In this document: one piece after another, positions 9,736 to 62,626 of the stretch
Layout of the letters: the number at the start of each line of letters is the position of its first letter
Position numbering within the stretch: position 1 is the stretch's first letter
Assembly (NCBI GenBank): GCA_964581255.1
Contig: CAZOMT010000034.1
Coordinates: 3,865 to 67,864 of the forward strand
Length of the DNA stretch: 64,000 bases
Reading direction: 5' to 3'
Source: an uncultured Thermodesulfatator sp.
Lineage (GTDB): Bacteria; Desulfobacterota; Dissulfuribacteria; Dissulfuribacterales; QOAL01
Translations under genes and position numbers: made by a program
The notes under the pieces: model-generated
What the model was told of the DNA's origin: nothing
Seen by the model: only the letters and a program-made list of their open reading frames with translations
The model's database searches: none

Positions 9736-9764
9736 GTGCCTGAACGACATTCAGCACCGTTTTT
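9736..9764 (+). terminator. Rho-independent terminator (plus-strand sense) overlapping the 3' end of the convergent permease gene
   Basis: GUGCCUGAA-CGACA-UUCAGCAC: an 8-bp stem with one bulged C, followed by CGTTTTT. Confidence 0.5.
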
Positions 9765-10866
9765 CATTATCATGCGTATCTTTTCCTTCGCCTTTACCTG
9801 CAACCACCTTCTGAAACTTCTTGGCCAAAGGCTTCACAGACAAGGCCAGCAGCACGATTGCCCCGGATATCTTGAGCCATGAAGGCAACACCTCTGGGGC
9901 CTGGCCTATCACTGCCCTGGCTGAGATGCCAAGGGATATATAGAGCATGTCCAGTGCAAGTCCGCAGACGATAGCGCACACTGACAGCGACAGAAGATAG
10001 ACGACAGTACCCCGTTTACCCAGAATGCCAGTAATAACGGATAGGGATGTCATGTTGGTAGCAGGACCTGCAAGGAGAAATACCAAGGCAGTGCCTGGGC
10101 TCACCCCCTTCATGATAAGAGCGGCAGCCACTGGTGTAGATGCTGTGGCACATATATATATAGGTATGCCTGCTGCGAGCATAAGGAACATGGAACCAAC
10201 TCCGCCCCCCAAGTGAGCTGACAGAAGATTTGCCGGAACCAGTGCGGCAATGATCCCTCCAATGAGGATCCCTACAAGAAACCAGCCTGCCAGGTCTGCC
10301 CATACATCAGTGACAGAAAACCTTAGCCCTGCCATCACCTTGCCCCAAAAAGACAGTTTTTGTCGCTCCTCTTCTTGGGGACAAGGCCTTTTCTCACAAC
10401 TCTCCCCCCTACATGAACAGCCTTCGCCTTCATTGGCCACTTCTTCACTATCTTCATAAACCAGCATATCTTCCATGACTCCTGCAAAAAATGCGGAAAA
10501 AAAGGCTGCCACTGGACGCACCACTGTCATTACAGGATCAAGCAGCGCCCAGGTCACAGCAATGGAGTCAACGCCTGATTCAGGAGTAGATATTAAAAAT
10601 GCCGTAACTGCACCTTTGCTGGCGCCTTGTTTCTTGAGGGAAGCTGCCGCCGGCAGTGTGCCACATGATCAAAGGGGAAGAGGGATACCCAGAAGAGCGG
10701 CCTTAGCTATCGATAACAGCCCTCCTTTGCCAAGATGCCTTGCAACAGCAGCAGGGCTTAGAAAGACCTTCAAAAGGCCGGCTACCAATATACCCAGGAG
10801 TATATATACTCCAGAGGCTACTAGAAGCCCCCATGATTGTAGTAAAACCTCCGTGAATAGGCCCAT
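9751..10866 (-). CDS. PF03773/ArsP-type permease with in-frame TGA (10669-10671), a candidate selenocysteine codon
   Basis: Track ORFs 10669..10881 and 9751..10557 are in the same frame. Read-through gives ...GIPLPL-[TGA]-SCGTLPAAASLKKQGASKGAVTAFLISTPESGVDSIAVTWALLDP.... The protein is multi-TM with a Cys-rich loop (CSCRGESCEKRPCP). The start is set at the ATG (MGLFTEVLL), because the upstream TTG seems unlikely. Confidence 0.7.
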
Positions 10867-11312
10867 GTATTGAAACCTCAAGCACTAAAGGCCCTCAATA
10901 TCCTGACGTAAGGAGTCTTTCGGGTCTTAATGCGATTTTTCTCAAAAATGATAGGAAAGCCCTATCAGGAAACAACATTATGAGCAAGAAAAACTTTTGA
11001 CTTTTTTGGCGATTGATTGGCTAGATCAACTCCATTCCACTGAAGCATGGGGAAAGGGCCAATAAATATCTTCCCAAAAAGACCGCAAGTGCCCTCTATT
11101 TTTACTTGACATAAATTTGTATTCTTATAATTATATATCTTATTAGTATAGATTAACAAGATCAACTTTGGCTACAAAAAAAGTCTAAACCATGCACAAG
11201 ATATTTCAAGAACACAAGAAACTACATCGCCTCATGGAAGGATTGAAGGCCTCAGACAGTATCGACCAGGTGGCAAAAAGTATCCGTAAAGCAGATCCTA
11301 TATGAAGATTAT

Positions 11313-21282: not shown

Positions 21283-21951
21283 TCAGGCGAATTCGCCCCT
21301 TACGATTTCGCCTTCCACCAGATATATGACCTCTTCGGCGATATTTGTGGCCCTGTCTGCTATCCTTTCAAGATGGCGCGCAAGTATGTAACAGTCTACC
21401 AGGTACCTTGCTGCCTCAGGCTGTCTCTGGATCTCTTCTATGACCTTCTCATAGTGCCTTGTCCGCTCCTTGTCCACGTCGTCATCCAGGATGAAGATGC
21501 GATGGGCCATGTCATTGTCCTGGTTGGTAATGGCGTCAAGGGCAAGCTTGAGCATCATCAGCACTGCAGAGATCATCTCATCGTAGTCTGGCTTGTATTT
21601 CAAGGGTATGTCTGCCGCAGAAAGATCCCCTACCCTTCTTGCTATGCTGACTGCATAATCACCTATGCGCTCAAGCTCGCTGATCACCTTTATAATAGTA
21701 ATGACAATCCTGAGATCCCTTGCAACAGGTTGATAAAGTGCGAGAATCTTCAAGCATTCCTCTTCTATATCTATCTCCAACTCATCTATCTCATAGTCTG
21801 AAGATGCAACAAAATTGATCAGCTTCTGATCTCTGGTCTTGATGGCCTCGCAGGCCTTCATCACCCTGTCTTCCACGAGTGCGCCCAAGTTGAGAAACCT
21901 TTCAAACAACTTGTCCAGTTGCTTATGAAACGTATAATGATAACCCCTCAT
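21283..21951 (-). CDS. phoU: Phosphate signalling complex protein PhoU
   Basis: 222 aa with a two-repeat PhoU architecture (...RIGDYAV... / ...RIADRATNIAE...). It is the last gene of the pst operon. Confidence 0.88.
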   Translation of the reverse strand: MRGYHYTFHKQLDKLFERFLNLGALVEDRVMKACEAIKTRDQKLINFVASSDYEIDELEIDIEEECLKILALYQPVARDLRIVITIIKVISELERIGDYAVSIARRVGDLSAADIPLKYKPDYDEMISAVLMMLKLALDAITNQDNDMAHRIFILDDDVDKERTRHYEKVIEEIQRQPEAARYLVDCYILARHLERIADRATNIAEEVIYLVEGEIVRGEFA

Positions 21952-22029
21952 AATATATTTTCCCCCTTCTGGACTAGGGAAAAGACATGGCAGCCTGGCA
22001 TTGGCTGAAAATAAAGATCTTTTCCTAGT

Positions 22030-22884
22030 CTATCCAAAACGGCCTGTAATATAGTCTTCTGTCTCTTTTCTCATGGGGTTTGTAAACATCTTGTCAGTGC
22101 TATCATACTCTATGAGCTTTCCAAGATACATAAAGGCTGTAAAATCAGAGACCCTTGCTGCCTGCTGCATATTGTGGGTCACTATGATTATCGTGTAGTC
22201 ACTCACAAGCTCGTCGATAAGTTCCTCAACCTTTGCAGTGGAAATGGGATCAAGCGCCGAACAAGGTTCATCCAGAAGCACCACTTCTGGCTTTACTGCA
22301 ATGGCCCTTGCTATACACAGCCTTTGCTGCTGGCCACCTGAAAGTGCCGTACCTATCTGCCGCAACTTATCCTTTACCTCTTTCCACAGGGCCGCCTTTT
22401 GAAGAGCCCATTCCACCCTTTCGTCCATCTCTGCCCTTGAAAGCTTTTCATACAGCCTGACACCAAAGGCAATGTTGTCGTAAACTGACATGGGAAAAGG
22501 CGTGGGCTTCTGAAATACCATGCCCACTTGGGCTCTTAGAAGATTCAAATCCTCCTTTGGCGAAAGGATGTTTCTGCCATCCAGCATTATCTCGCCCTTG
22601 GCATATTGCCTGGGATAGAGTTCATAAATCCTGTTGAAACACCTGATCAGGGTAGACTTTCCACAGCCTGAAGGGCCAATCATCGCAGTTACACGCTTTT
22701 CAGGTATATCCATGGTGATGGAGTGAAGGGCATGAAAGTTGCCGTAGAAAAAATCCAGATTCTTCACCTCTATCTTTATTGGAAGAGATGAAAGATCTCC
22801 CCTGGAACCAGCAGCATTCTCACCATTTTTTATTGGCGCAAACCCCTTTTCCAGAAGGGTTTTTTCATTGTTGTCCGTTTTCAT
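22030..22884 (-). CDS. pstB: Phosphate ABC transporter ATP-binding protein PstB
   Basis: Walker [13 protein letters not shown] signature LSGGQQQR, Walker B VVLLDEP. Confidence 0.93.
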
Positions 22885-22964
22885 AATAATCTTGTCCCTG
22901 TCACTTGAACAATTCCAGAAATACAGAATTTTGTTTGACTCTTATCTGACATGAACCAGGATCG

Positions 22965-23819
22965 TCAGCGATTTCTAAGAAAAGTCCTTACCATTATATT
23001 CAAGGCAAGCACACTGAGGGTAATGAGAAAAGCGCCTGCCCAAGCGAGGTTTTGCCAATCCTCATAAGGGCTCATGGCAAATTGGAATATCACAACTGGC
23101 AAATTGGCCACTGGCTCGTTGAGGCTGCTGCTCCAGAATTGGTTGTTCAGGGCGGTAAAGAGCAAAGGTGCTGTCTCTCCGCTTATCCTTGCCACTGCAA
23201 GAAGTATCCCCGTCAATATTCCTGCCTTTGCAGCCCTGTAAACAATGGCAACCGTGACCTTCCATTTTGGGGCTCCAAGGGCACAAGCCGCCTCCCTGAC
23301 AGTATTTGGTACCAGCTTGAGCATGTCCTCGGTGGTACGAACTATGATGGGAAGGGCTATAAGAGCCAGGGCCAGAGAACCAGCCCAGCCAGAGAAGTTT
23401 CCCATGGGCACTACTACCACTTCGTAGATAAAGACACCAATGATGATAGATGGCGCACTCAACAAAACATCGTTCACGAACCTGATAACAGGGGCTATAC
23501 GGGAACGGATGGCATATTCAGACAGAAAGGTGCCGGCCATAACGCCCACAGGCGCCCCAATAATTACGCCCATTGCAGTTATTATAATGCTGCCCACAAT
23601 GGCGTTGGCTAGCCCTCCTGCATCTCCAGGAGGTGGGGTCGGCTGGGTGAACACTGAAAGATTCAGATACTGGAATCCGTGACTGAACAAGGTGACAAGG
23701 AGCCATGCAAGCCAGAAGAGCCCAAAAAGCGTGGTCAAAAAAGATGCGGAAAGTATGATAAAATTTAACAGGACCCGCCTTCTGTATAGATTGAAATTGA
23801 TGTTATTCAACTGGCTCAT
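22965..23819 (-). CDS. pstA: Phosphate ABC transporter permease PstA
   Basis: Multi-TM permease whose start overlaps the pstC stop (ATGA). Its position in the pstSCAB order supports the call. Confidence 0.88.
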
Positions 23820-24790
23820 GTCCTGGTTCCCTCTCTAAGTGTCAGGCGCAAGAGGAAAAACTTGGCAATCGATAGCACCACGAAGGTGATGAGAAACAGG
23901 ATAAGGCCCAATGCAATAAGCGAGGACGTATACATCTGCCCAACAGCCTCTGTGAACTGGTTTGCAAGGCTTGATGAAATGGTATTCCCTGGCATGAGCA
24001 AAGAGCTTTCAAGCCTGTCTGCATTTCCTATGACGAATGTTACCGCCATGGTCTCTCCAAGGGCCCTTCCAAGCCCCAACATGATTCCTCCTACCACGCC
24101 TATCTTGGTATAGGGAAGCACGATCATCTTGACGACCTCCCAGGTTGTAGCCCCTATCCCATAGGCCGATTCCTTTAGCACAGCAGGTACGACCTCGAAA
24201 AGGTCCCTAAAGACAGATGCCATGAAAGGGATCACCATTATGCCGAGTATTATTCCGGCAGTCAGGACTCCTATGCCAAGGGGAGGGCCAGAAAAGAGAC
24301 TGCCAATGATTGGTATCTGACCAAGGTTGTCTGATATCCAGGGTTCTATATAGTCGCCGAAAAAGGGGGCAAACACAAAAAGACCCCACATGCCGTAAAT
24401 GATGCTGGGTATGGCAGCAAGAAGCTCGATAGCGGTAGATACTGGACGTTTCAGCCATATAGGACAAAGCTCTGTGATAAAGATGGCGATCCCAAAACTT
24501 ACTGGTACTCCTATCAGCATGGCGATGATGGAGGTAACCAGTGTCCCATAGATGGCGACCAGTGCCCCAAAGTCTTCTGTAACAGGGTTCCATGCAGGAC
24601 TTATGAAAAAAGACAGTCCAAATTTTTTAAAGGCGGGCCACGCCCCAACAAGTAGGGAACCCATCATGGCGATGATGATCCCAAGGACAATTATTGCACA
24701 TATCCTTGTGGCGTTCGTAAACAATATATCCAGTATATGCCCTGCACTACCCCGCCTGAGCGCTGCAAGTGATTTAGAATCTTGTTCCAC
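23816..24790 (-). CDS. pstC: Phosphate ABC transporter permease PstC
   Basis: 324-aa multi-TM permease located between pstS and pstA. Confidence 0.88.
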
Positions 24791-24886
24791 GTCCGTGCCT
24801 GCTTCTTGTTAGTATTAGGTAGACATTGATCTCAAAATGGCCGCATCCTGCCATATACGACAGCCCCTGGTGGCAAAAATCCCTCA

Positions 24887-25945
24887 TCATGGCCAGATGG
24901 GATTACCAGCAGTGTCTTTGATCTGCCTTTTCCATGCCTCTTCCACCAGATTCACGACCTTCATGGGCATGGGGACGTAATCAAGCTCTTCAGCCATCTT
25001 CTGGCCATTTTTATAACACCAGTCGAAAAATGTCAGGACCGCCTTTGCTACTTCAGGCCTTTTTTGGACCTTGTGCATCAGGATAAAGCTAGCCCCTGTT
25101 ATAGGCCAGCTGTCCTTGCCTGGCTGATCCGTGAGCACCATGTAAAATCCTTCGGCCTTTTCCCAATCCGCATTGGAAGCCGCAGCCTGAAATGTGTTGC
25201 TGTTGGGCTCAACATATTCTCCTGCCCTGTTCTTTAGCTTCACATACGTAAGGTGGTTTTGAAGGGCATAGGCATATTCCACATAACCAATGCTTCCTTC
25301 TATCCTCCTGACATATGACGCAACGCCTTCGTTTCCTTTCCCGCCTATGCCAGTTGGCCATGCAACAGCTTTGGCATTTCCTACCTTTTGCTTCCAGGTG
25401 TTGCTCACCTTGGAAAGATAATTTGTAAATATCCAGGTGGTTCCTGAGCCATCTGACCTGTGTACCACCACAATATTCCTGGCGGGCAAAGCAAGGCCGG
25501 GGTTTTCCGCCTTGATGCGCTGGTCATCCCATTTTTTCACCATGCCAAGATATATATCTGCCATGAGTTCGTTGCTGAGCCTTATCTGACCAGGCTTTAT
25601 CCCCTTGAGATTTATCACTGGCACCACCCCTCCCATTATCATGGGAAACTGGATGAGGCCCGCTTCTTTCAAGACCGATGGCTTAAGAGGGGCATCCGAT
25701 GCCCCAAAATCAACCGTCTTTGCCTTTATCTGCTTGATGCCACCACCTGAGCCTATGGACTGATAATTCATCTTTATTCCATTGAGCTTGTAATAGGCGG
25801 CCGCCCACTTGGCATACACGGGATATGGGAAAGTAGCACCTGCCCCTGATATGGCCCTCACACTCCCAGAATAGACAGGCCCTGGATTTATGACAAACAA
25901 ACACAAAAAGGCCAAGCCGAGCACCACAAACCGATCGTAATTCAT
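24887..25945 (-). CDS. pstS: Phosphate ABC transporter substrate-binding protein PstS
   Basis: Signal peptide followed by GAGATFPYPVYAKWA, typical of PstS. The start is set at the ATG 8 nt after AAGGAG, because the track GTG overlaps the RBS. Confidence 0.9.
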   Translation of the reverse strand: MNYDRFVVLGLAFLCLFVINPGPVYSGSVRAISGAGATFPYPVYAKWAAAYYKLNGIKMNYQSIGSGGGIKQIKAKTVDFGASDAPLKPSVLKEAGLIQFPMIMGGVVPVINLKGIKPGQIRLSNELMADIYLGMVKKWDDQRIKAENPGLALPARNIVVVHRSDGSGTTWIFTNYLSKVSNTWKQKVGNAKAVAWPTGIGGKGNEGVASYVRRIEGSIGYVEYAYALQNHLTYVKLKNRAGEYVEPNSNTFQAAASNADWEKAEGFYMVLTDQPGKDSWPITGASFILMHKVQKRPEVAKAVLTFFDWCYKNGQKMAEELDYVPMPMKVVNLVEEAWKRQIKDTAGNPIWP

Positions 25946-26040
25946 GGAAATCACTCCTTTTTTAAGATTCCTTCATGGCAATGCCCTGTTCTTTTGGTCA
26001 AACCAAAACTTAAATCACAGCCCATAATAGTATCTATCGA

Positions 26041-57836: not shown

Positions 57837-58883
57837 TTGTCAGTGTCGGTAGACCTCATAGGCAAAAGCGCTGTCATACTGGAGATCAAGGACCTCATAT
57901 CCAAGGTTGCCCCTCTGGATCTCCAGGTCCTCGTAACCGGAGAAACAGGCACAGGCAAAGACCTCGTGGCCAGAATAATCCACGAAAGAAGCCCTAGAAA
58001 AAACGGCCCTTTTATCCCAATCAATTGTGGAGCCATTCCCAACACCCTTGTCGAATCTTGCCTTTTCGGCCACGAAAAAGGGGCCTTTACTGGCGCAACA
58101 GGTAGATCCAGGGGCTTTTTCGAAGAGGCCCACCAAGGCACCCTATTTCTGGATGAAATATCTGAGGGCTCGCCGGTGCTGCAGACGGCTCTCCTCAGAG
58201 TGCTCCAGGAAGAATGCTTCTTCAGGATAGGCTCAACCAGGGAACTGCAGGTCAATGTCAGGATAATCGCCGCCACAAACAAGGACCTTAAACTCGCAGT
58301 GAATGTGGGCACCTTCCGCGAAGACCTTTTCTTCAGATTGAGCGTATTTGAGATAAAACTGCCTCCGCTAAGGGACAGGGGTGACGACATCTTCCTCCTT
58401 GCATATCATTACCTGAACCGGGCAAATCAAAAATATGGAAAAAATGTCAATCGGCTTTCCAACGAGGTCGTCAGGGTATTCAAATCCTATCACTGGCCAG
58501 GCAACGTCAGGGAACTTTTTCATGTGATTGAAAGGGGTGTAGTTGTGGAAAACTCAGATGAACTCTCCATGGCGTCCATGCCGCGATACATGAAAGACAA
58601 GGGAGAATTTCAGCAAGAAAACACCAGCCAGGCCATCACAGGCGCCACTGAACAAACCAGGCCCAACAGCCTGGAAGAAGGCCTCTTTTCTCTTCCAATA
58701 AGCGAGGCAAGGAAGCGCTTTGAAAAAAGATACCTCAAAAGGCTTCTTTCAAAAACCGCTGGCAACATGTCCCTTGCTGCAGAAATTGCCGGCATAAGAA
58801 GACAGAATCTCTACAGAAAGATGCAACAGCTCAAACTCGATCCATCTTCATTCAGGACAAGAAGCAATCAGGGCAGAAAATGA
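57837..58883 (+). CDS. Sigma-54 activator lacking any N-terminal sensory domain (AAA+ and HTH only)
   Basis: Starts directly with LIGKS...VLVTGETGTGK and carries GAFTGA and a Fis-type HTH (MSLAAEIAGIRRQNLYRKM). An in-frame TAA at 57816 precludes a longer N-terminus. The start is TTG or GTG. Confidence 0.85.
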   Translation: MSVSVDLIGKSAVILEIKDLISKVAPLDLQVLVTGETGTGKDLVARIIHERSPRKNGPFIPINCGAIPNTLVESCLFGHEKGAFTGATGRSRGFFEEAHQGTLFLDEISEGSPVLQTALLRVLQEECFFRIGSTRELQVNVRIIAATNKDLKLAVNVGTFREDLFFRLSVFEIKLPPLRDRGDDIFLLAYHYLNRANQKYGKNVNRLSNEVVRVFKSYHWPGNVRELFHVIERGVVVENSDELSMASMPRYMKDKGEFQQENTSQAITGATEQTRPNSLEEGLFSLPISEARKRFEKRYLKRLLSKTAGNMSLAAEIAGIRRQNLYRKMQQLKLDPSSFRTRSNQGRK

Positions 58884-61800
58884 CTGAAAAGCACCCGGGC
58901 AAAAGATCCAAGATCCCCTCAGCGGCAGTCATAGGCGCGGGAGTCTCTGGCATAACTGCTGCCCTCGACCTGGCAGAACTTGGATTGCACGTGTACCTGA
59001 TAGAAGAAGGAGATGTCATCGGAGGGCTCATGTCCCGATTGAGCAAGACCTTTCCCACAGGAGATTGTCCAACCTGAATACTCTCGCCCATGATGGCCCA
59101 GTTGGGCATGAATAAAAACATTGAAATCCTCACGAGATCTTCTGTTCTGGACGTCCAACAGGACAATCGGGATTTCCTTTTGCGGGTCAGGTCAAATCCC
59201 CGCTTCGTCATCCCTGAAAAATGCATTGGATGCGGTCTTTGCGAGGATGTATGTCCTGAAAACATTACAAGCTTGTCACACAAATATGACAAATTAAAAA
59301 AGGCGATCTATCTTCCATCTCCTACAGCAATTCCAAGGGGCTATGTGATCGATGCCAAAAGCTGCGCCTTTTTCACGAACAGGGCATGTGGAAAATGCGC
59401 CAAGATCTGTCCAAGGCACGCCATCGACCTGAACCAGGCGCCCCAGGAGTTCGAGGTAAGAGTTGCAGCCGTAATCCTGTCTCCAGGCGCCACCTTATTT
59501 GATCCAAGGGCCTTGCCTTCCTTTGGTTATAACAATCTCAAAAATGTGGTCACAACCCTTGAAATGGAGTCCCTTTTGAGCCCTGCGACTCCAGATCTCG
59601 AAGGCCTCAAGAGGCTTGCTTCCAATAGTAGAACGCCAGCCAAGATAGCATGGATACAGTGTGTGGGCTCCAGACAGACCAACGTGGTAGATAGGCCCTT
59701 TTGTTCCAGTATTTGCTGCATGGCCTCGATCAAACAGGCATTGTCCCTACGGCAGATGCTTGTCCCAGAACCAGAGGTCTCTATCTTTTACATCGACGTT
59801 AGAGCGCATCAAAAGGGTGCGGAGCGCTATTTAAGGTTGGCCGTGAAAGCTGGAGTCAGGTTGATACCCAGCAGGATACACTTTCTTGAAGAGGTCCAGG
59901 GCGAAAAGATAAGAATAACCGCATGGACAGACTCGGGGAAACGACTTCGAGAAATTTACGATATGGTGGTGTTGTCATGCGGCCTCGGCTCTCCAGAAGA
60001 GCTTGGCAGGCTATCAACCCTGTTTGGGGTGGAAACGAGCCGTTACGGTTTCAGCAAGGGCCAAGGCCTGATCACAACCATGACCAGTAAACCTGGCATT
60101 TACGCCAGCGGCACCTATACGGATCCAAAATCCATCCAGGGGGCAGTGATAGAAGGTTCAGCCGCAGCTGCCTTTCTATGCAGCGACCTAAAGATCAGCT
60201 CCTTCAAGGACCCTGGTGCCATGGAACTAGACTTGCCAAATGGTCCTGCTCCTTCATTGGAACCTCCAAGAATAGGCGTATTCATCTGTGAATGTGGTAA
60301 AAACATAGGCCAAGTGGTAGATGTAAATAGCCTGGTTCAGAGGGCAAAAAAGATAAATGGCGTGGTGGTGGCCAAACACCTCAAATTTGCATGTGCCCCT
60401 GACTCTCTAGACCTGCTATCTGCAACCATTATACAAAAGGGCCTCAACAGGATTGTTATCGGCGCTTGCAGTCCAAAATCCCATGAGCCCCTGTTCAAAA
60501 AGGCCCTCCGGGACGCAGGCCTTAATGACAACCTCCTGGAAATCGCAAATATCAGGGAGCAGGCGGCCTGGGTGCACGCTGCTGATCCAGACGGGGCAAC
60601 CAAACGGGCCTTGGACCAAATCGTGATGTCGATAGCAAAAGCTGGGCTGTTGAAGGCATTGGAATTGCCTCAATATCCTGTCACCAAGCATGCCTTGGTC
60701 ATTGGAGGTGGAATTTCAGGGCTCACTGCTGCAAAACTTCTCTCTGATAGGGGAATCAAGGTGAGTTTGCTTGAAAAGAAAGAAATACTGGGAGGCAATG
60801 GAAGATCACTGCTGCGGTCATGGAAGGGAGTTGAAATCCGTAAGTACGTAGACGGTCTCATAGGGGAAGTAACATCCAAAAGAAATGTTGAAGTCTTTCT
60901 CAGGGCCCAGCTTTTGGATGTTCAGGGTGAGACAGGAAATCTCACAAGCTTTGTGCGATATGGCAGCCAGGGACAGGTAAAGGCCATAAATCACGGCGCT
61001 GTAATTGTCGCATCTGGAGCACAGGAGGCAAAACCGCTGCAATTTCACTATGGTGATCATCCCAGAATCCTCACCCATCAGGAGCTTGACCAAAAAATTA
61101 TAAAAAGTGGCTTCCAAATCTTCCAGCAGGCCGACTCCGTAGTGTTTATCCAGTGCGTGGGTTCATGCAGCCAGGAGCGGCCCTATTGCAGCAGGGTCTG
61201 CTGCACCCATTCAGTAAACAGGGCCATTTTGCTCAAGAAAAAAAGGCCTGAACTTTCTATTTATATTTTGTACCGGCACATGAGGACCTATGGCCAACGG
61301 GAAGATCTCTATACCGAGGCCCGAAGCTTAGGCATTAAGACAATCAGGTTCACAGAAGATACCCCTCCAGAGGTAGAGCTCTTGACTGCCATGGATGAGG
61401 ACAAAAGGCCGGAGACCATCATCAGTGTGACGATATTTGACTCCCTTACAGGCAGGGTTATAAAGATTAAGCCAGATTATCTCGTCCTTGCCTCTGCAAT
61501 AGAGCCAGATATCAATGGCAATCAACGACTCTCTAAGATACTAAAGGTGCCCTTGGATCAGGATGGTTTTTTTCAGGAGGCACACAACAAACTTCGCCCA
61601 GTGGAACTGAGGCGCGATGGTTTTTTTGTGGCAGGCCTTGCCCATTATCCCAAAGAGGTTGAAGAATCCATTAGCCAGGCAGCTGCCGCAGCAAGCAAGG
61701 CCGCTGTCTTTCTATCCAAAGAAAGGGTGACCCCAGACAGAATCACTGCAGAAGTTCTTATATCCAGATGCGATGGATGTGCCTTGTGCCTGGATGTTTG

Positions 61801-61984
61801 TGATGAAAGGGCCATCAAACTTGTAGAATATATCCACCTTGAACAGGTAAAAAAGATAGTGGAAATCGATACCTCCCTTTGCAGCGGTTGCGGAGCATGT
61901 ACTGCTTCATGCCCACAATTTGCTATAGGGATACCTGGATTCATGCCAGAGCAGATACTTGCCCAGATAAAGGTGATAGCATAA
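58880..61984 (+). CDS. hdrA: Large (1034-aa) double-module HdrA-like flavo-FeS oxidoreductase with in-frame TGA (59075-59077), a probable selenocysteine
   Basis: Track ORFs 58880..59077 and 59090..61984 share a frame. Read-through gives KTFPTGDCPT-[TGA]-ILSPMM, the known Sec/Cys position of HdrA. The protein has two GxGxxG motifs, two CVGS...CSxxCC motifs and four CxxCxxC ferredoxin motifs. Confidence 0.85.
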
Positions 61985-61987
61985 GAG

Positions 61988-62626
61988 ATGAGCAACAAGC
62001 TGCCAAAGATTCTAGCCTTTTTGTGCCGCTGGTGCGGATATAGCTGCGCGGATCTTGCCGGGGTATCCCGCGTCGAATATCCAGCCTCCATAAGGGTCAT
62101 TGAGGTAATGTGCTCTTGCATGGTGCATCCTGACTGGATAATAAATGGCCTCATGGCAGGCCTTGATGGTGTCATGATCATGGGTTGCCATCCAGGTGAA
62201 TGCCACTACGGGACAGGAAACACCCTTGCAGAAAGACGTGCAGAGATAATCTATTCCACCCTTGAAGAGCTTGGTCTGGAAAGAAAACGGTTTGCAATAA
62301 ACTGGGTGTCTGCTGCTGAAGCTCACAGATTTGCAAATATTGTCCAAAAAATGACCGACGATTTAAAAACACTTGGCCCAAACACATATAGGACAGAGTT
62401 TTTCACACAATCTCGTCTTGAAGAAAAGATGGCCCCCAGGATCCCATTCATCCATGTTTCAGACAGAGTCAGCTACTATTGGGATGGAACCGTTTATACA
62501 GACGAAGCCTCGGCCCAAAAGGCCTTATCCAGATATCTCGACATGGAAATGGAGGCCAAGCTCGTTCCAACAGAAGAGGGGCTTCTCATTTATACCAGGC
62601 GAACTATTCCAGTGGAGAAGACATGA
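61988..62626 (+). CDS. MvhD/FlpD-like hydrogenase delta-subunit-type protein with C-terminal extension
   Basis: ILAFLCRWCGYSCADLAG...MCSC...IMGCHPGECHY motifs typical of MvhD. 212 aa, with roughly the last 70 aa beyond the usual domain. Confidence 0.82.
   Translation: MSNKLPKILAFLCRWCGYSCADLAGVSRVEYPASIRVIEVMCSCMVHPDWIINGLMAGLDGVMIMGCHPGECHYGTGNTLAERRAEIIYSTLEELGLERKRFAINWVSAAEAHRFANIVQKMTDDLKTLGPNTYRTEFFTQSRLEEKMAPRIPFIHVSDRVSYYWDGTVYTDEASAQKALSRYLDMEMEAKLVPTEEGLLIYTRRTIPVEKT

Follow-up and report, generated by a model that had tools for sequence, protein, structure and literature searches.

The window, that is, the whole 64-kb stretch of DNA analysed here, carries on its minus strand two open reading frames, 10669..10881 and 9751..10557, which lie in the same frame and are separated by one TGA (10671..10669). 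An HdrA-like gene on the plus strand is likewise interrupted by an in-frame TGA. The features on which the analysis rests are the following:

9751..10866, minus strand: coding sequence of an SO_0444-family transporter, 371 codons in a single frame including the predicted Sec66, with the stop codon TGA at 9753..9751
10876..10879, minus strand: GAGG, putative ribosome-binding site read from the sequence, 9 nt before the ATG at 10866
10669..10671, minus strand: UGA predicted to be read as Sec, residue 66 and first position of U-S-C-G, from alignment to an invariant Cys
10632..10668, minus strand: putative bacterial SECIS of class A, from folds and the same architecture in 75 orthologues
10656..10644, minus strand: apical stem CUGCC/GGCAG of this element, 12 nt from UGA to stem
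10651..10649, minus strand: GGC triloop, beginning 17 nt after the UGA
10378..10419, minus strand: Cys-rich central loop CSCRGESCEKRPCP, with C150, C157 and C162 invariant in alignment A1
10150..10152, minus strand: Cys239 in repeat half 2 (G-I-P-I-Y-I-C-A-T), homologous to Sec66 by repeat alignment
58880..61984, plus strand: HdrA-like flavoprotein gene with an in-frame TGA at 59075..59077 (C-P-T-U)

Between the ATG at 10866 and the terminal TGA, the codon at 10671..10669 is the only in-frame stop, and 305 open codons follow it. The read-through translation, ...AALLGIPLPL[TGA]SCGTLPAAASLKKQGASKG..., continues unbroken across this codon, so that both the shared frame and the continuity described in the initial annotation were reproduced. 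Translation likely starts at the ATG at 10866 and less likely at the TTG at 10881 given by the ORF tool; the resulting N-terminus, MGLFTEVLLQSW, fits the homologue consensus MxxIxxxLxESW. An inverted repeat in the leader (10967..10949) is absent from the nearest relatives. The public gene calls at this locus give two products, of 65 aa and 259 aa. A Sec at residue 66 would join the two called pieces and restore a complete transporter, and gene calling that treats TGA as a stop only would likewise truncate the other TGA-bearing orthologues.

The read-through protein, with Cys written for Sec, scored 399.8 bits against the NCBIfam equivalog NF033936 (SO_0444 family Cu/Zn efflux; cut-off 300), its residues 12-345 of 371 covering model positions 2-349 of 351. 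It also matched Pfam PF03773 ('ArsP_1') at 1.2e-40, and the SO_0444 family is a subset of PF03773. The family motifs C/U-S-C-G in half 1 and Y-I-C-A-T-A-S-T-P in half 2, as well as the Cys-rich central loop, were all found, and every invariant column of alignment A1, whose 45 sequences include the window protein, is present in it. The neighbours of the gene are leuS, lptE, an Rrf2 regulator, a NifU-like gene and a two-component system. The earlier assignment to an ArsP/PF03773-type permease stands at the superfamily level but not for ArsP proper, which was rejected because the Pfam match is a superfamily-level one, the equivalog match is to a Cu/Zn efflux family and no ars genes lie nearby; without ars context, the organoarsenical framing that went with that assignment is unsupported. 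SaoE (NF040736) was also rejected, with 166.4 bits against a cut-off of 325 and no Sao genes in the window.

The motif L-C-S-C-G does not vary among the full-length homologues (119 of 119), and the TGA of the window stands opposite its first Cys, as the initial annotation had stated. A genome search with a degenerate DNA pattern requiring TGA (context G[IV]PxPL-TGA-SCGxLP) found this codon at the motif in no fewer than 119 other species-representative genomes, against about 0.3 expected by chance according to our own calculation. These carriers are nearly all Desulfobacterota, and a Desulfomonile locus (L076) is among them. The alternation of Sec and Cys that had been suggested as a check on this column was thus found, with Cys-form homologues on one side and the TGA-bearing orthologues (Sec-forms) on the other. 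Every complete TGA locus keeps roughly 290-350 codons open after the TGA, and family-typical residues resume right after the TGA in the Sec-forms without an available start codon. The window protein is closest to other Sec-forms (L012, 69 % identity; L057, 66 %). The invariance of the Cys together with the recurrence of the TGA places its position clearly beyond chance. We regard the in-frame TGA as almost certainly a true selenocysteine codon.

The RNA downstream of the UGA was analysed in the window and across the family. The bSECISearch criteria reportedly ask for an apical loop some 16-37 nt downstream of the UGA with a G among its first two positions; the window element, with its 5-bp stem, a GGC loop at 17 nt and an additional lower stem, falls within these ranges. 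The lower stem consists of three 2-bp blocks (UC/GA, UG/CA and GG/CC), which are kept in the window element. The apical stem has only 5 contiguous bp, and among 75 class-A elements this hairpin ranks last in stability (-9.4 versus a median of -14.9 kcal/mol). The 81-nt window fold was no better than that of shuffles (z = +1.4) or of synonymous recodings (z = -0.24), and the window hairpin by itself is not more than chance. An Rfam scan of the whole 64-kb window at the gathering threshold gave no SECIS match, and a search of 10560..10700 and 59050..59180 with permissive E-values yielded chance matches only (E > 2).

Across the family, the commonest type of hairpin was the GGC triloop 17 nt after the UGA (class A), present in 70/118 Sec-forms. 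A CGUGUC/CGUGAC hexaloop hairpin 23 nt after the UGA (class B) occurred in 33/118, its core sequence being contained in 38 Sec-forms, and Desulfomonile-type loci have another hairpin, with a UGUA tetraloop; in all, at least four types were found in the TGA-bearing genes, whereas 120 Cys-forms showed no preferred hairpin. The minimum free energy of the 60 nt after the codon did not separate Sec-forms from Cys-forms (mean -21.1 vs -22.7 kcal/mol), the Ala/Gly-rich coding sequence folding well in both, and Z-scores against synonymous recoding were weak; position-specific hairpin and synonymous-entropy tests were used in place of overall folding energy. Synonymous-codon entropy over codons +3..+10 was 0.6-1.6 bits in Sec-forms compared with 1.6-2.1 bits in Cys-forms, and this constraint was confined to these codons and to the Sec-forms, the flanks being equal in both sets. 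At pairs 14-30, 15-29 and 16-28, compensatory changes occupied 6 cells versus 1.0 expected (0/500 shuffles), and in class B a compensatory change was seen at pair 21-38. Such a hairpin constraint, specific to the Sec-forms, is the signature of SelB-dependent recoding. The CUGCC-GGC-GGCAG hairpin proposed earlier is present, with its loop at 17 nt and within a conserved class, but it is the weakest of that class and non-significant when taken alone.

The second TGA-bearing gene of the window concerns the decoding capacity of the host. The TGA of the HdrA-like gene aligns to a Cys of the solved HdrA structure 5ODC, and its C-P-T-U corresponds to CxxU, the listed HdrA Sec motif; the earlier remark that this gene carries a TGA at a known Sec position was thereby confirmed. 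Its candidate SECIS has a 4-bp stem and is as small as that of the transporter. As judged from its sequence, this gene is supporting evidence that the host decodes UGA as Sec. None of selA, selB, selD or tRNA-Sec was found within the 64-kb window, so the Sec machinery of the genome is one that we infer. Desulfobacterota are a Sec-rich group. Elsewhere in the window, TGA is an ordinary stop codon and the commonest one, ending 15 of 27 long ORFs.

The window protein contains an internal repeat, its two halves being homologous (31 % identity, E = 9e-14), and in the repeat alignment U66, written as C, lies opposite the invariant C239. In an AlphaFold model of the Cys homologue P0002, which is 60 % identical to the window protein and modelled at moderate confidence (pLDDT 73.5), the U66-S-C68-G and C239 motifs are placed at breaks in membrane helices. 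No sequence relative was found in the PDB, and Foldseek against the PDB gave weak matches only (TM 0.40-0.46, E > 1e-3), to the elevator-type transporters TRAP SiaQM, Pho90, YdaH and NaCT, which are no more than suggestive. The Cys-rich loop pointed out earlier is indeed present at 10419..10378 but is not special to this protein, being a degenerate version, without His, of the family-wide Cys/His-rich loop (consensus DLSCPVDxCCDGxxCPPEEHxxHH).

The genomic context links the Sec-forms to metals. In 78/107 Sec-form loci the gene immediately upstream codes for an ArsR-family regulator with a CVCD motif, so that a Sec-form is usually paired with an ArsR-type metal sensor. A tblastn search of the window found no ArsR gene. 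Among Cys-forms, Shewanella oneidensis MR-1 requires SO_0444 when stressed with ZnSO4 or CuCl2, and fitness profiling with complementation identified it as a copper/zinc efflux protein (PMC3219624); a Nitratiruptor homologue is described in the literature as induced by Cd and Cu.

We assign a probability of about 0.87 to the reading that the product is a 371-residue selenoprotein, an SO_0444-family Cu/Zn-type permease in which UGA 66 is recoded to Sec and probably forms part of a metal site. SelB and Sec-tRNA would be recruited to the UGA by the small hairpin inside the coding sequence, that is, by the 5-bp GC stem, whose GGC triloop begins 17 nt after the UGA, together with the interrupted lower stem. 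U66, C68 and C239 together probably constitute a selenolate/thiolate binding site for the thiophilic metal ion that is transported, and the selenolate may bind more tightly or exchange ligands faster than Cys. The central Cys-rich loop would be the presumed cytoplasmic metal-binding segment of the family. By analogy with the characterised, distant Cys-form members, the protein may export a soft metal ion of the Cu/Zn/Cd kind.

An improbable alternative is that the gene is a decaying or recently inactivated copy with an eroded SECIS and lost regulation, in which the UGA mostly terminates and leaves a useless 65-residue peptide. The weakness of the hairpin within class A and the missing ArsR neighbour would fit such decay, as would the loss of V71, of N84 and of the loop residues H167, H170 and H171, which are invariant in the Cys-forms aligned. 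However, T/A71, the shorter stem and the absence of ArsR are shared with the relatives L012, L057, L028, L044 and L014, which marks them as traits of the clade rather than of recent decay. The frame remains open for all 305 codons past the TGA, the lower-stem blocks are conserved, and the HdrA SECIS candidate of the same genome is equally small. The gene is also identical in two slightly different assemblies. The invariant columns of alignment A1 are all retained as well, although by construction, since the window protein is one of its 45 sequences.

Less probable again is a selenium-free reading of the UGA, either by read-through or reassignment with a near-cognate Trp or Cys, or with two separate polypeptides that assemble. 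The window shows no Sec machinery genes, and Cys at position 66 would function, to judge from the Cys-forms; yet TGA, as the commonest ordinary stop in the window, speaks against global reassignment, and the mRNA hairpin constraint is specific to the Sec-forms. The carriers, moreover, are Desulfobacterota, and the window itself holds a known selenoprotein type, HdrA. As for two polypeptides, the first in-frame start lies 38 codons past the TGA, and so late a start would delete the invariant SCG...STPESG, yet this segment is conserved in all Sec-forms. It is very unlikely indeed that a true TGC or TGT was misread or misassembled as TGA: a single base change turns a Cys codon into TGA and the source is a metagenome assembly, but the independent assembly L240 (99.966 % identical to the window over 20.5 kb, 6 mismatches) has the identical gene with its TGA, the truncated product is on record for 4 contigs from several sources, and all closest relatives, together with at least 119 genomes in total, carry TGA at this codon. 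The core claim of the initial annotation, a Sec-containing permease with TGA at the first Cys of C-x-C, is supported.

The high novelty implied by the initial annotation did not hold. SO_0444-family selenoproteins in which USC replaces CSC have already been described by Haft & Gwadz (2022, bioRxiv 10.1101/2022.07.06.499078), with WP_014809615.1 of Desulfomonile tiedjei as an example; the same authors report that the family is in the NCBI PGAP selenoprotein reference data, and a 2026 review (PMC13188914) lists SO_0444 selenoproteins as 'UxC'. The gene is therefore an unannotated new member of a described family and not a discovery, and the result for the window itself is expected rather than surprising. 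A literature search for 'selenoprotein' paired with COG0701 or with the predicted-permease label gave no match. Like the known SO_0444 selenoproteins, the window protein passes NF033936, has U-S-C at the same column and comes from a Desulfobacterota host. Its identity to the Sec-forms retrieved does not exceed 69 %, and its gene is unannotated in the public record. Its subclade further differs from them in a T/A at +4, a shorter SECIS stem, a His-less loop and the lack of an ArsR neighbour, and from Desulfomonile-type loci in having a GGC triloop instead of the UGUA tetraloop.

The window protein shares the family model, C/U-S-C-G, Y-I-C and the Cys/His-rich loop architecture with SO_0444 of strain MR-1, which has Cys where the window protein has Sec. 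The MR-1 operon is under a ZntR-like MerR regulator and most Sec-forms have an ArsR-type regulator, whereas the window gene has neither. ArsP (methylarsenite/organoarsenical efflux; TCDB Organo-Arsenical Exporter) belongs to the same Pfam superfamily, PF03773, and in 2015 Chen and co-workers reportedly found that a conserved membrane-embedded cysteine pair of ArsP is needed for transport. SaoE (NF040736), from the SAO locus of Clostridioides difficile, is of the same superfamily, and CSC is the tripeptide motif most conserved between the SaoE and SO_0444 families; the SaoE family lacks selenoprotein members, and its genes are always accompanied by those of the Sao ABC importer (10.1101/2022.07.06.499078), which are absent from the window. 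The MerT-like mercuric transport selenoproteins similarly have Sec in place of a metal-binding Cys in a membrane segment, but they are of unrelated fold and family and are importers rather than exporters.

Selenoprotein transporters are few, and we know of none that has been tested experimentally. Only two prokaryotic transporter families with selenoproteins had earlier been validated, the MerT-like family being the only other one found and validated for PGAP besides SO_0444 (Haft & Gwadz, 10.1101/2022.07.06.499078), and the review cited above (PMC13188914) lists several further predicted selenoprotein transporters. Our survey adds that well over a hundred species have the Sec-form, among them the cultured strains Desulfopila aestuarii DSM 18488 (L037), Desulforhopalus singaporensis DSM 12130 (L036), Desulforhopalus sp. 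IMCC35007 (L049) and Desulfosediminicola flagellatus IMCC35005 (L066), and that it comes with natural Sec/Cys pairs and several SECIS solutions inside one conserved coding segment. A broader and tentative reading, which we consider possible but rather unlikely, is that the Sec-forms make up a widespread branch across Desulfobacterota, mostly controlled by ArsR(CVCD), in which selenium itself coordinates the transported metal. At the helix breaks, Cys239 of half 2 would then lie opposite Sec66 and Cys68 of half 1, and the selenolate might shift specificity or kinetics towards the softest ions, Cu(I), Cd, Hg or As(III). By a rough estimate from neighbour joining and parsimony, such a branch would have undergone about nine or more gains or losses, and new SECIS elements, in at least four hairpin forms, would have arisen within the same conserved peptide-coding stretch. 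If true, this would be the first case open to study in cultured strains in which a secondary transporter has a selenolate at its substrate site. With its many species, Sec/Cys pairs and varied SECIS elements, the family thus offers a practical system for the role of selenium at a metal-transport site.

The permease gene was read from the sequence as a single minus-strand frame of 371 codons, with GAGG 9 nt 5' of its ATG, and its sole interruption was one TGA at codon 66 (Sec66). Because of this single in-frame TGA, the ORF tool reported two same-frame pieces, 10669..10881 and 9751..10557. The initial annotation had described one frame split in this way, with the read-through product ...AKAALLGIPLPL-[UGA]-SCGTLPAAASLKKQGASKGAVTAFLISTPESGVDS..., a downstream CUGCC-GGC-GGCAG hairpin and a Cys-rich loop, CSCRGESCEKRPCP, and all of these were found on the window sequence. 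The features concerned are as follows.

10866..9751, minus strand: permease gene, from ATG at 10866 to the TGA stop at 9753..9751
10671..10669, minus strand: in-frame TGA
10656..10644, minus strand: hairpin, its loop starting 17 nt 3' of the UGA
10366..10419, minus strand: Cys-rich loop, residues 150–167
10949..10967, minus strand: perfect inverted repeat TGATAGG-GCTTT-CCTATCA, followed by TTTTT
58880..61984, plus strand: HdrA-like double flavoprotein gene, with an in-frame TGA at 59075..59077 in FPTGDCPT-[U]-ILSP

The permease is a lone minus-strand gene, flanked by lptE/leuS on one side and by a divergent Rrf2-regulator/NifU-like pair on the other, and its first in-frame start 3' of the TGA lies 38 codons downstream. 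The inverted repeat, located in the leader roughly 100 nt 5' of the ATG, between the start codon and promoter-like sites near 11130–11160, looks like a terminator or operator; it was absent upstream of the permease genes of the nearest relatives.

For profile comparisons, Cys was put in place of the TGA. The permease matched Pfam PF03773 “ArsP_1” at 1.2e-40 and, over nearly its full length, the NCBIfam equivalog NF033936, “SO_0444 family Cu/Zn efflux transporter”, scoring 399.8 bits where the curated cut-off is 300. An identity as SaoE was rejected, as that model gave 166 bits against a cut-off of 325, far under the threshold. The organoarsenical ArsP framing of the initial annotation was not supported, and the protein does not qualify as ArsP in the strict sense; the permease belongs to the Cu/Zn-type SO_0444 family. 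In every respect that could be tested, the window gene agreed with this family and with bacterial selenoproteins. A protein search returned thousands of full-length homologues with 55–63% identity, and no solved structure was related to the permease by sequence.

The TGA replaces the first Cys of an L-C-S-C-G motif that was present in 119/119 full-length homologues among the matches listed. To this Cys column corresponded TGA in at least 119 loci elsewhere, in line with the Cys/Sec alternation anticipated by the initial annotation. These loci, from at least 119 species, were obtained by scanning a collection of species-representative genomes with the degenerate DNA pattern G-[IV]-P-x-P-L-TGA-S-C-G-x-L-P, for which about 0.3 loci were expected by chance (596 Gb, both strands; computed here). 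Among the matches listed, almost all of these Sec-forms (genes with TGA at the motif) came from Desulfobacterota, including Desulfocapsaceae, Desulfobulbaceae, Desulfobacterales, Desulfarculaceae, Desulfomonile, and Thermodesulfobacteriaceae, and the isolates Desulforhopalus singaporensis DSM 12130, Desulfopila aestuarii DSM 18488, Desulforhopalus sp. IMCC35007, and Desulfosediminicola flagellatus IMCC35005. Two carriers were labelled otherwise, L020 (JAOUFU010000601.1, Phycisphaerae) and L035 (Proteobacteria), which could reflect binning contamination or lateral transfer. The listed Sec-forms were 43–69% identical to the window protein, and its nearest relatives, L012 (69%) and L057 (66%), were themselves Sec-forms. 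The Leu codon preceding the TGA (10672..10674 in the window) was CTC in 59, TTG in 35, and CTG in 5 of 120 Sec-forms, and CTG in 32, CTC in 29, and TTG in 24 of 120 Cys-forms (genes with a Cys codon there); this bias may reflect an influence of codon context on how the UGA is recoded.

An in-frame TGA could also arise by assembly error, pseudogenisation, or code reassignment. A second, ENA assembly (locus L240; ERZ27262694, contig k141_73521) represents a near-identical population with 6 mismatches and 1 gap against the window over 20.5 kb, and its permease gene was identical, including the TGA; an independent assembly that differs elsewhere thus excludes a local assembly error. The public calls in L240, 9665–9862 and 10001–10780, correspond to 65- and 259-residue products; the 259-residue split product is on record from NCBI, JGI, Logan, and ENA sources, and the source genome's own call was matched in the protein search with 100% identity and 70% coverage. 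As regards decay, the initial annotation had named scattered stops in orthologues as a sign of it; every complete listed locus was open for about 290–350 codons past the TGA, and family-typical residues followed directly 3' of the TGA, where no start codon is available. Scattered pseudogenisation cannot yield a recurrent TGA together with open frames and conserved residues in such divergent genes. Reassignment of the code was ruled out because TGA otherwise serves as an ordinary stop in the window, more often than any other codon (15/27 long ORFs).

We compared the RNA downstream of the UGA with 120 Cys-form genes from metagenomes. Folding energy over the 60 nt after the codon did not separate the two sets. 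Of 118 listed Sec-forms, 70 had a hairpin whose GGC triloop begins 17 nt 3' of the UGA (class A; e.g., L086:5853–5903) and 33 had one whose CGUGUC or CGUGAC hexaloop begins 23 nt 3' of it (class B; e.g., L019:4973–5023), with the class-B core sequence present in 38. Minority hairpins comprised a UGUA tetraloop at +20 in Desulfomonile-type loci and a CCCAC/GUGGG stem; further examples are L076:642–692 and L052:4537–4587. Among the 120 Cys-forms, no hairpin was preferred. Synonymous-codon entropy, computed among sequences sharing the same amino acid, was 0.6–1.6 bits in Sec-forms versus 1.6–2.1 bits in Cys-forms at codons +3 to +10, and was equal in both sets at codons −10 to −2 and +11 to +30, which controls for relatedness. 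The apical 8-bp helix of class A was paired in more than 90% of cells, with compensatory changes from C-G to U-A (16–28), G-C to A-U (15–29), and U-A to C-G (14–30); six compensatory cells were found versus 1.0 expected, a number reached in 0/500 shuffles. At pair 21–38 of class B, C-G, U-G, and U-A all occurred. These sequence comparisons indicate that RNA structure is selected only where UGA needs recoding, at the distance of a bacterial SECIS (the RNA element for Sec insertion). Within the 51 nt from the TGA in L001–L119, at least four hairpin solutions occupy one conserved peptide-coding stretch, and the residues at positions +7 to +12 differ with the solution used.

The window element is of class A and the weakest of 75 (−9.4 kcal/mol versus a median of −14.9), with five contiguous apical pairs and three 2-bp lower blocks kept. 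Taken alone, it was no different from shuffled or recoded sequence, and Rfam models did not detect it. The shortened stem and a T/A at +4 are common to the subclade of L012, L057, L028, L044, and L014, so we read them as clade traits rather than decay, although they are still the main caveat.

No tRNA, selA, selB, or selD was found in the 64-kb window. In alignment with the solved Methanothermococcus thermolithotrophicus HdrA (5ODC_A, E = 7e-81), the TGA of the HdrA-like gene, which the initial annotation had placed at a known Sec position, fell on the second DCSIC Cys, and CxxU is the listed Sec motif of HdrA. An MvhD-like gene (61988..62626) and HdrB/C-like genes follow downstream, all without TGA. 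For the HdrA-like gene, the candidate SECIS amounted to no more than four base pairs, GCCC/GGGC, closing an AGUU loop located 22 nt 3' of the UGA. The recurrent TGA, the open frames, the Sec-form-specific RNA constraint, and the HdrA-like CxxU supported the selenocysteine reading of the initial annotation, and we place the probability that the window gene encodes a functional Sec-containing transporter at about 0.87.

The two halves of the permease were mutually homologous (31% identity, E = 9e-14). Their alignment sets GIPLPL-U-SCGTLPAAA (half 1) against GIPIYI-C-ATASTPVAA (half 2), which makes the invariant Cys239 the counterpart of Sec66. In an AlphaFold model of P0002, a Cys homologue 60% identical to the window protein (pLDDT 73.5), both motifs lie at breaks between short helices (residues 61|68 and 236|240). 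The best PDB folds were the elevator-type transporters TRAP SiaQM, Pho90, YdaH, and NaCT, a hint only, because the matches were weak (TM 0.40–0.46). Motif invariance, the repeat, and this model suggest Sec66, Cys68, and Cys239 as likely transport-site ligands. A central Cys-rich loop is typical of the family (consensus DLSCPVDxCCDGxxCPPEEHxxHH); the window has a degenerate copy, keeping the invariant C150, C157, and C162 among four Cys, with no His. The CC pair and H-x-x-H-H, both invariant in aligned Cys-form homologues, are missing from it, and the loop of L012 has diverged similarly. L072 was open for 730 codons after the TGA, and the Cys-form loci L153, L174, and L193 for 626–671 codons after the Cys codon, about twice the usual length, which suggests either that a further domain has been fused to the C-terminus or that the normal stop is read through.

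Neighbour joining of 100 Sec-forms and 71 Cys-forms, two sets from different collections, gave a rough and only approximate tree, on which the Sec-forms fell mainly into two clades, one of 58 members (class A, window included) and one of 22 (class B), with at least nine Sec/Cys changes by parsimony. An ArsR-family regulator (Pfam HTH_5) lay directly upstream on the same strand in 78/107 listed Sec-form loci with enough upstream sequence (e.g., L050:1234–1627 (+), L036:7062–7419, L037:2727–3096, L066:5048–5474), and 73 of these 78 contained an M-C-V-C-D motif; the gene was absent from the window and from its subclade and nearest relatives. In L012 and L057, some 300 nt before the permease start, an upstream gene closes with a PhoU-like C-terminus (...LERIADRATNIAEEVIYL.EGEIVRGEF); the window's phoU-pstBACS (21283..25954) lies about 11 kb from the permease. 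The ArsR linkage supports a putative metal- or metalloid-responsive efflux role for Sec-form permeases. Among Cys-forms, S. oneidensis SO_0444, which sits with a ZntR-like regulator, is required under ZnSO4 and CuCl2 stress, with complementation, and Cd and Cu strongly induce a homologue in Nitratiruptor. From this linkage and these Cys-form data, we infer by analogy that the window permease would export thiophilic metal ions.

The SO_0444 family “does contain selenoprotein examples”, its C-S-C occasionally becoming Sec-Ser-Cys (USC), as in WP_014809615.1 (Desulfomonile tiedjei) and the homologues closest to it, and MerT-like proteins are the only other prokaryotic transporter family whose selenoprotein members those authors had earlier identified and validated as PGAP reference data (Haft and Gwadz, bioRxiv 10.1101/2022.07.06.499078). 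In a 2026 review (PMC13188914), the GenBank-annotated selenoprotein families include “SO_0444 family Cu/Zn efflux transporter, NF033936, UxC”. The window gene, likewise with U-S-C in place of C-S-C, is a further, currently mis-split case of this described form. The breadth of the Sec-form across at least 119 species, the diversity of its SECIS hairpins, its linkage to ArsR, and the equivalence of Sec66 with Cys239 go beyond those brief published mentions, as modest extensions of them.
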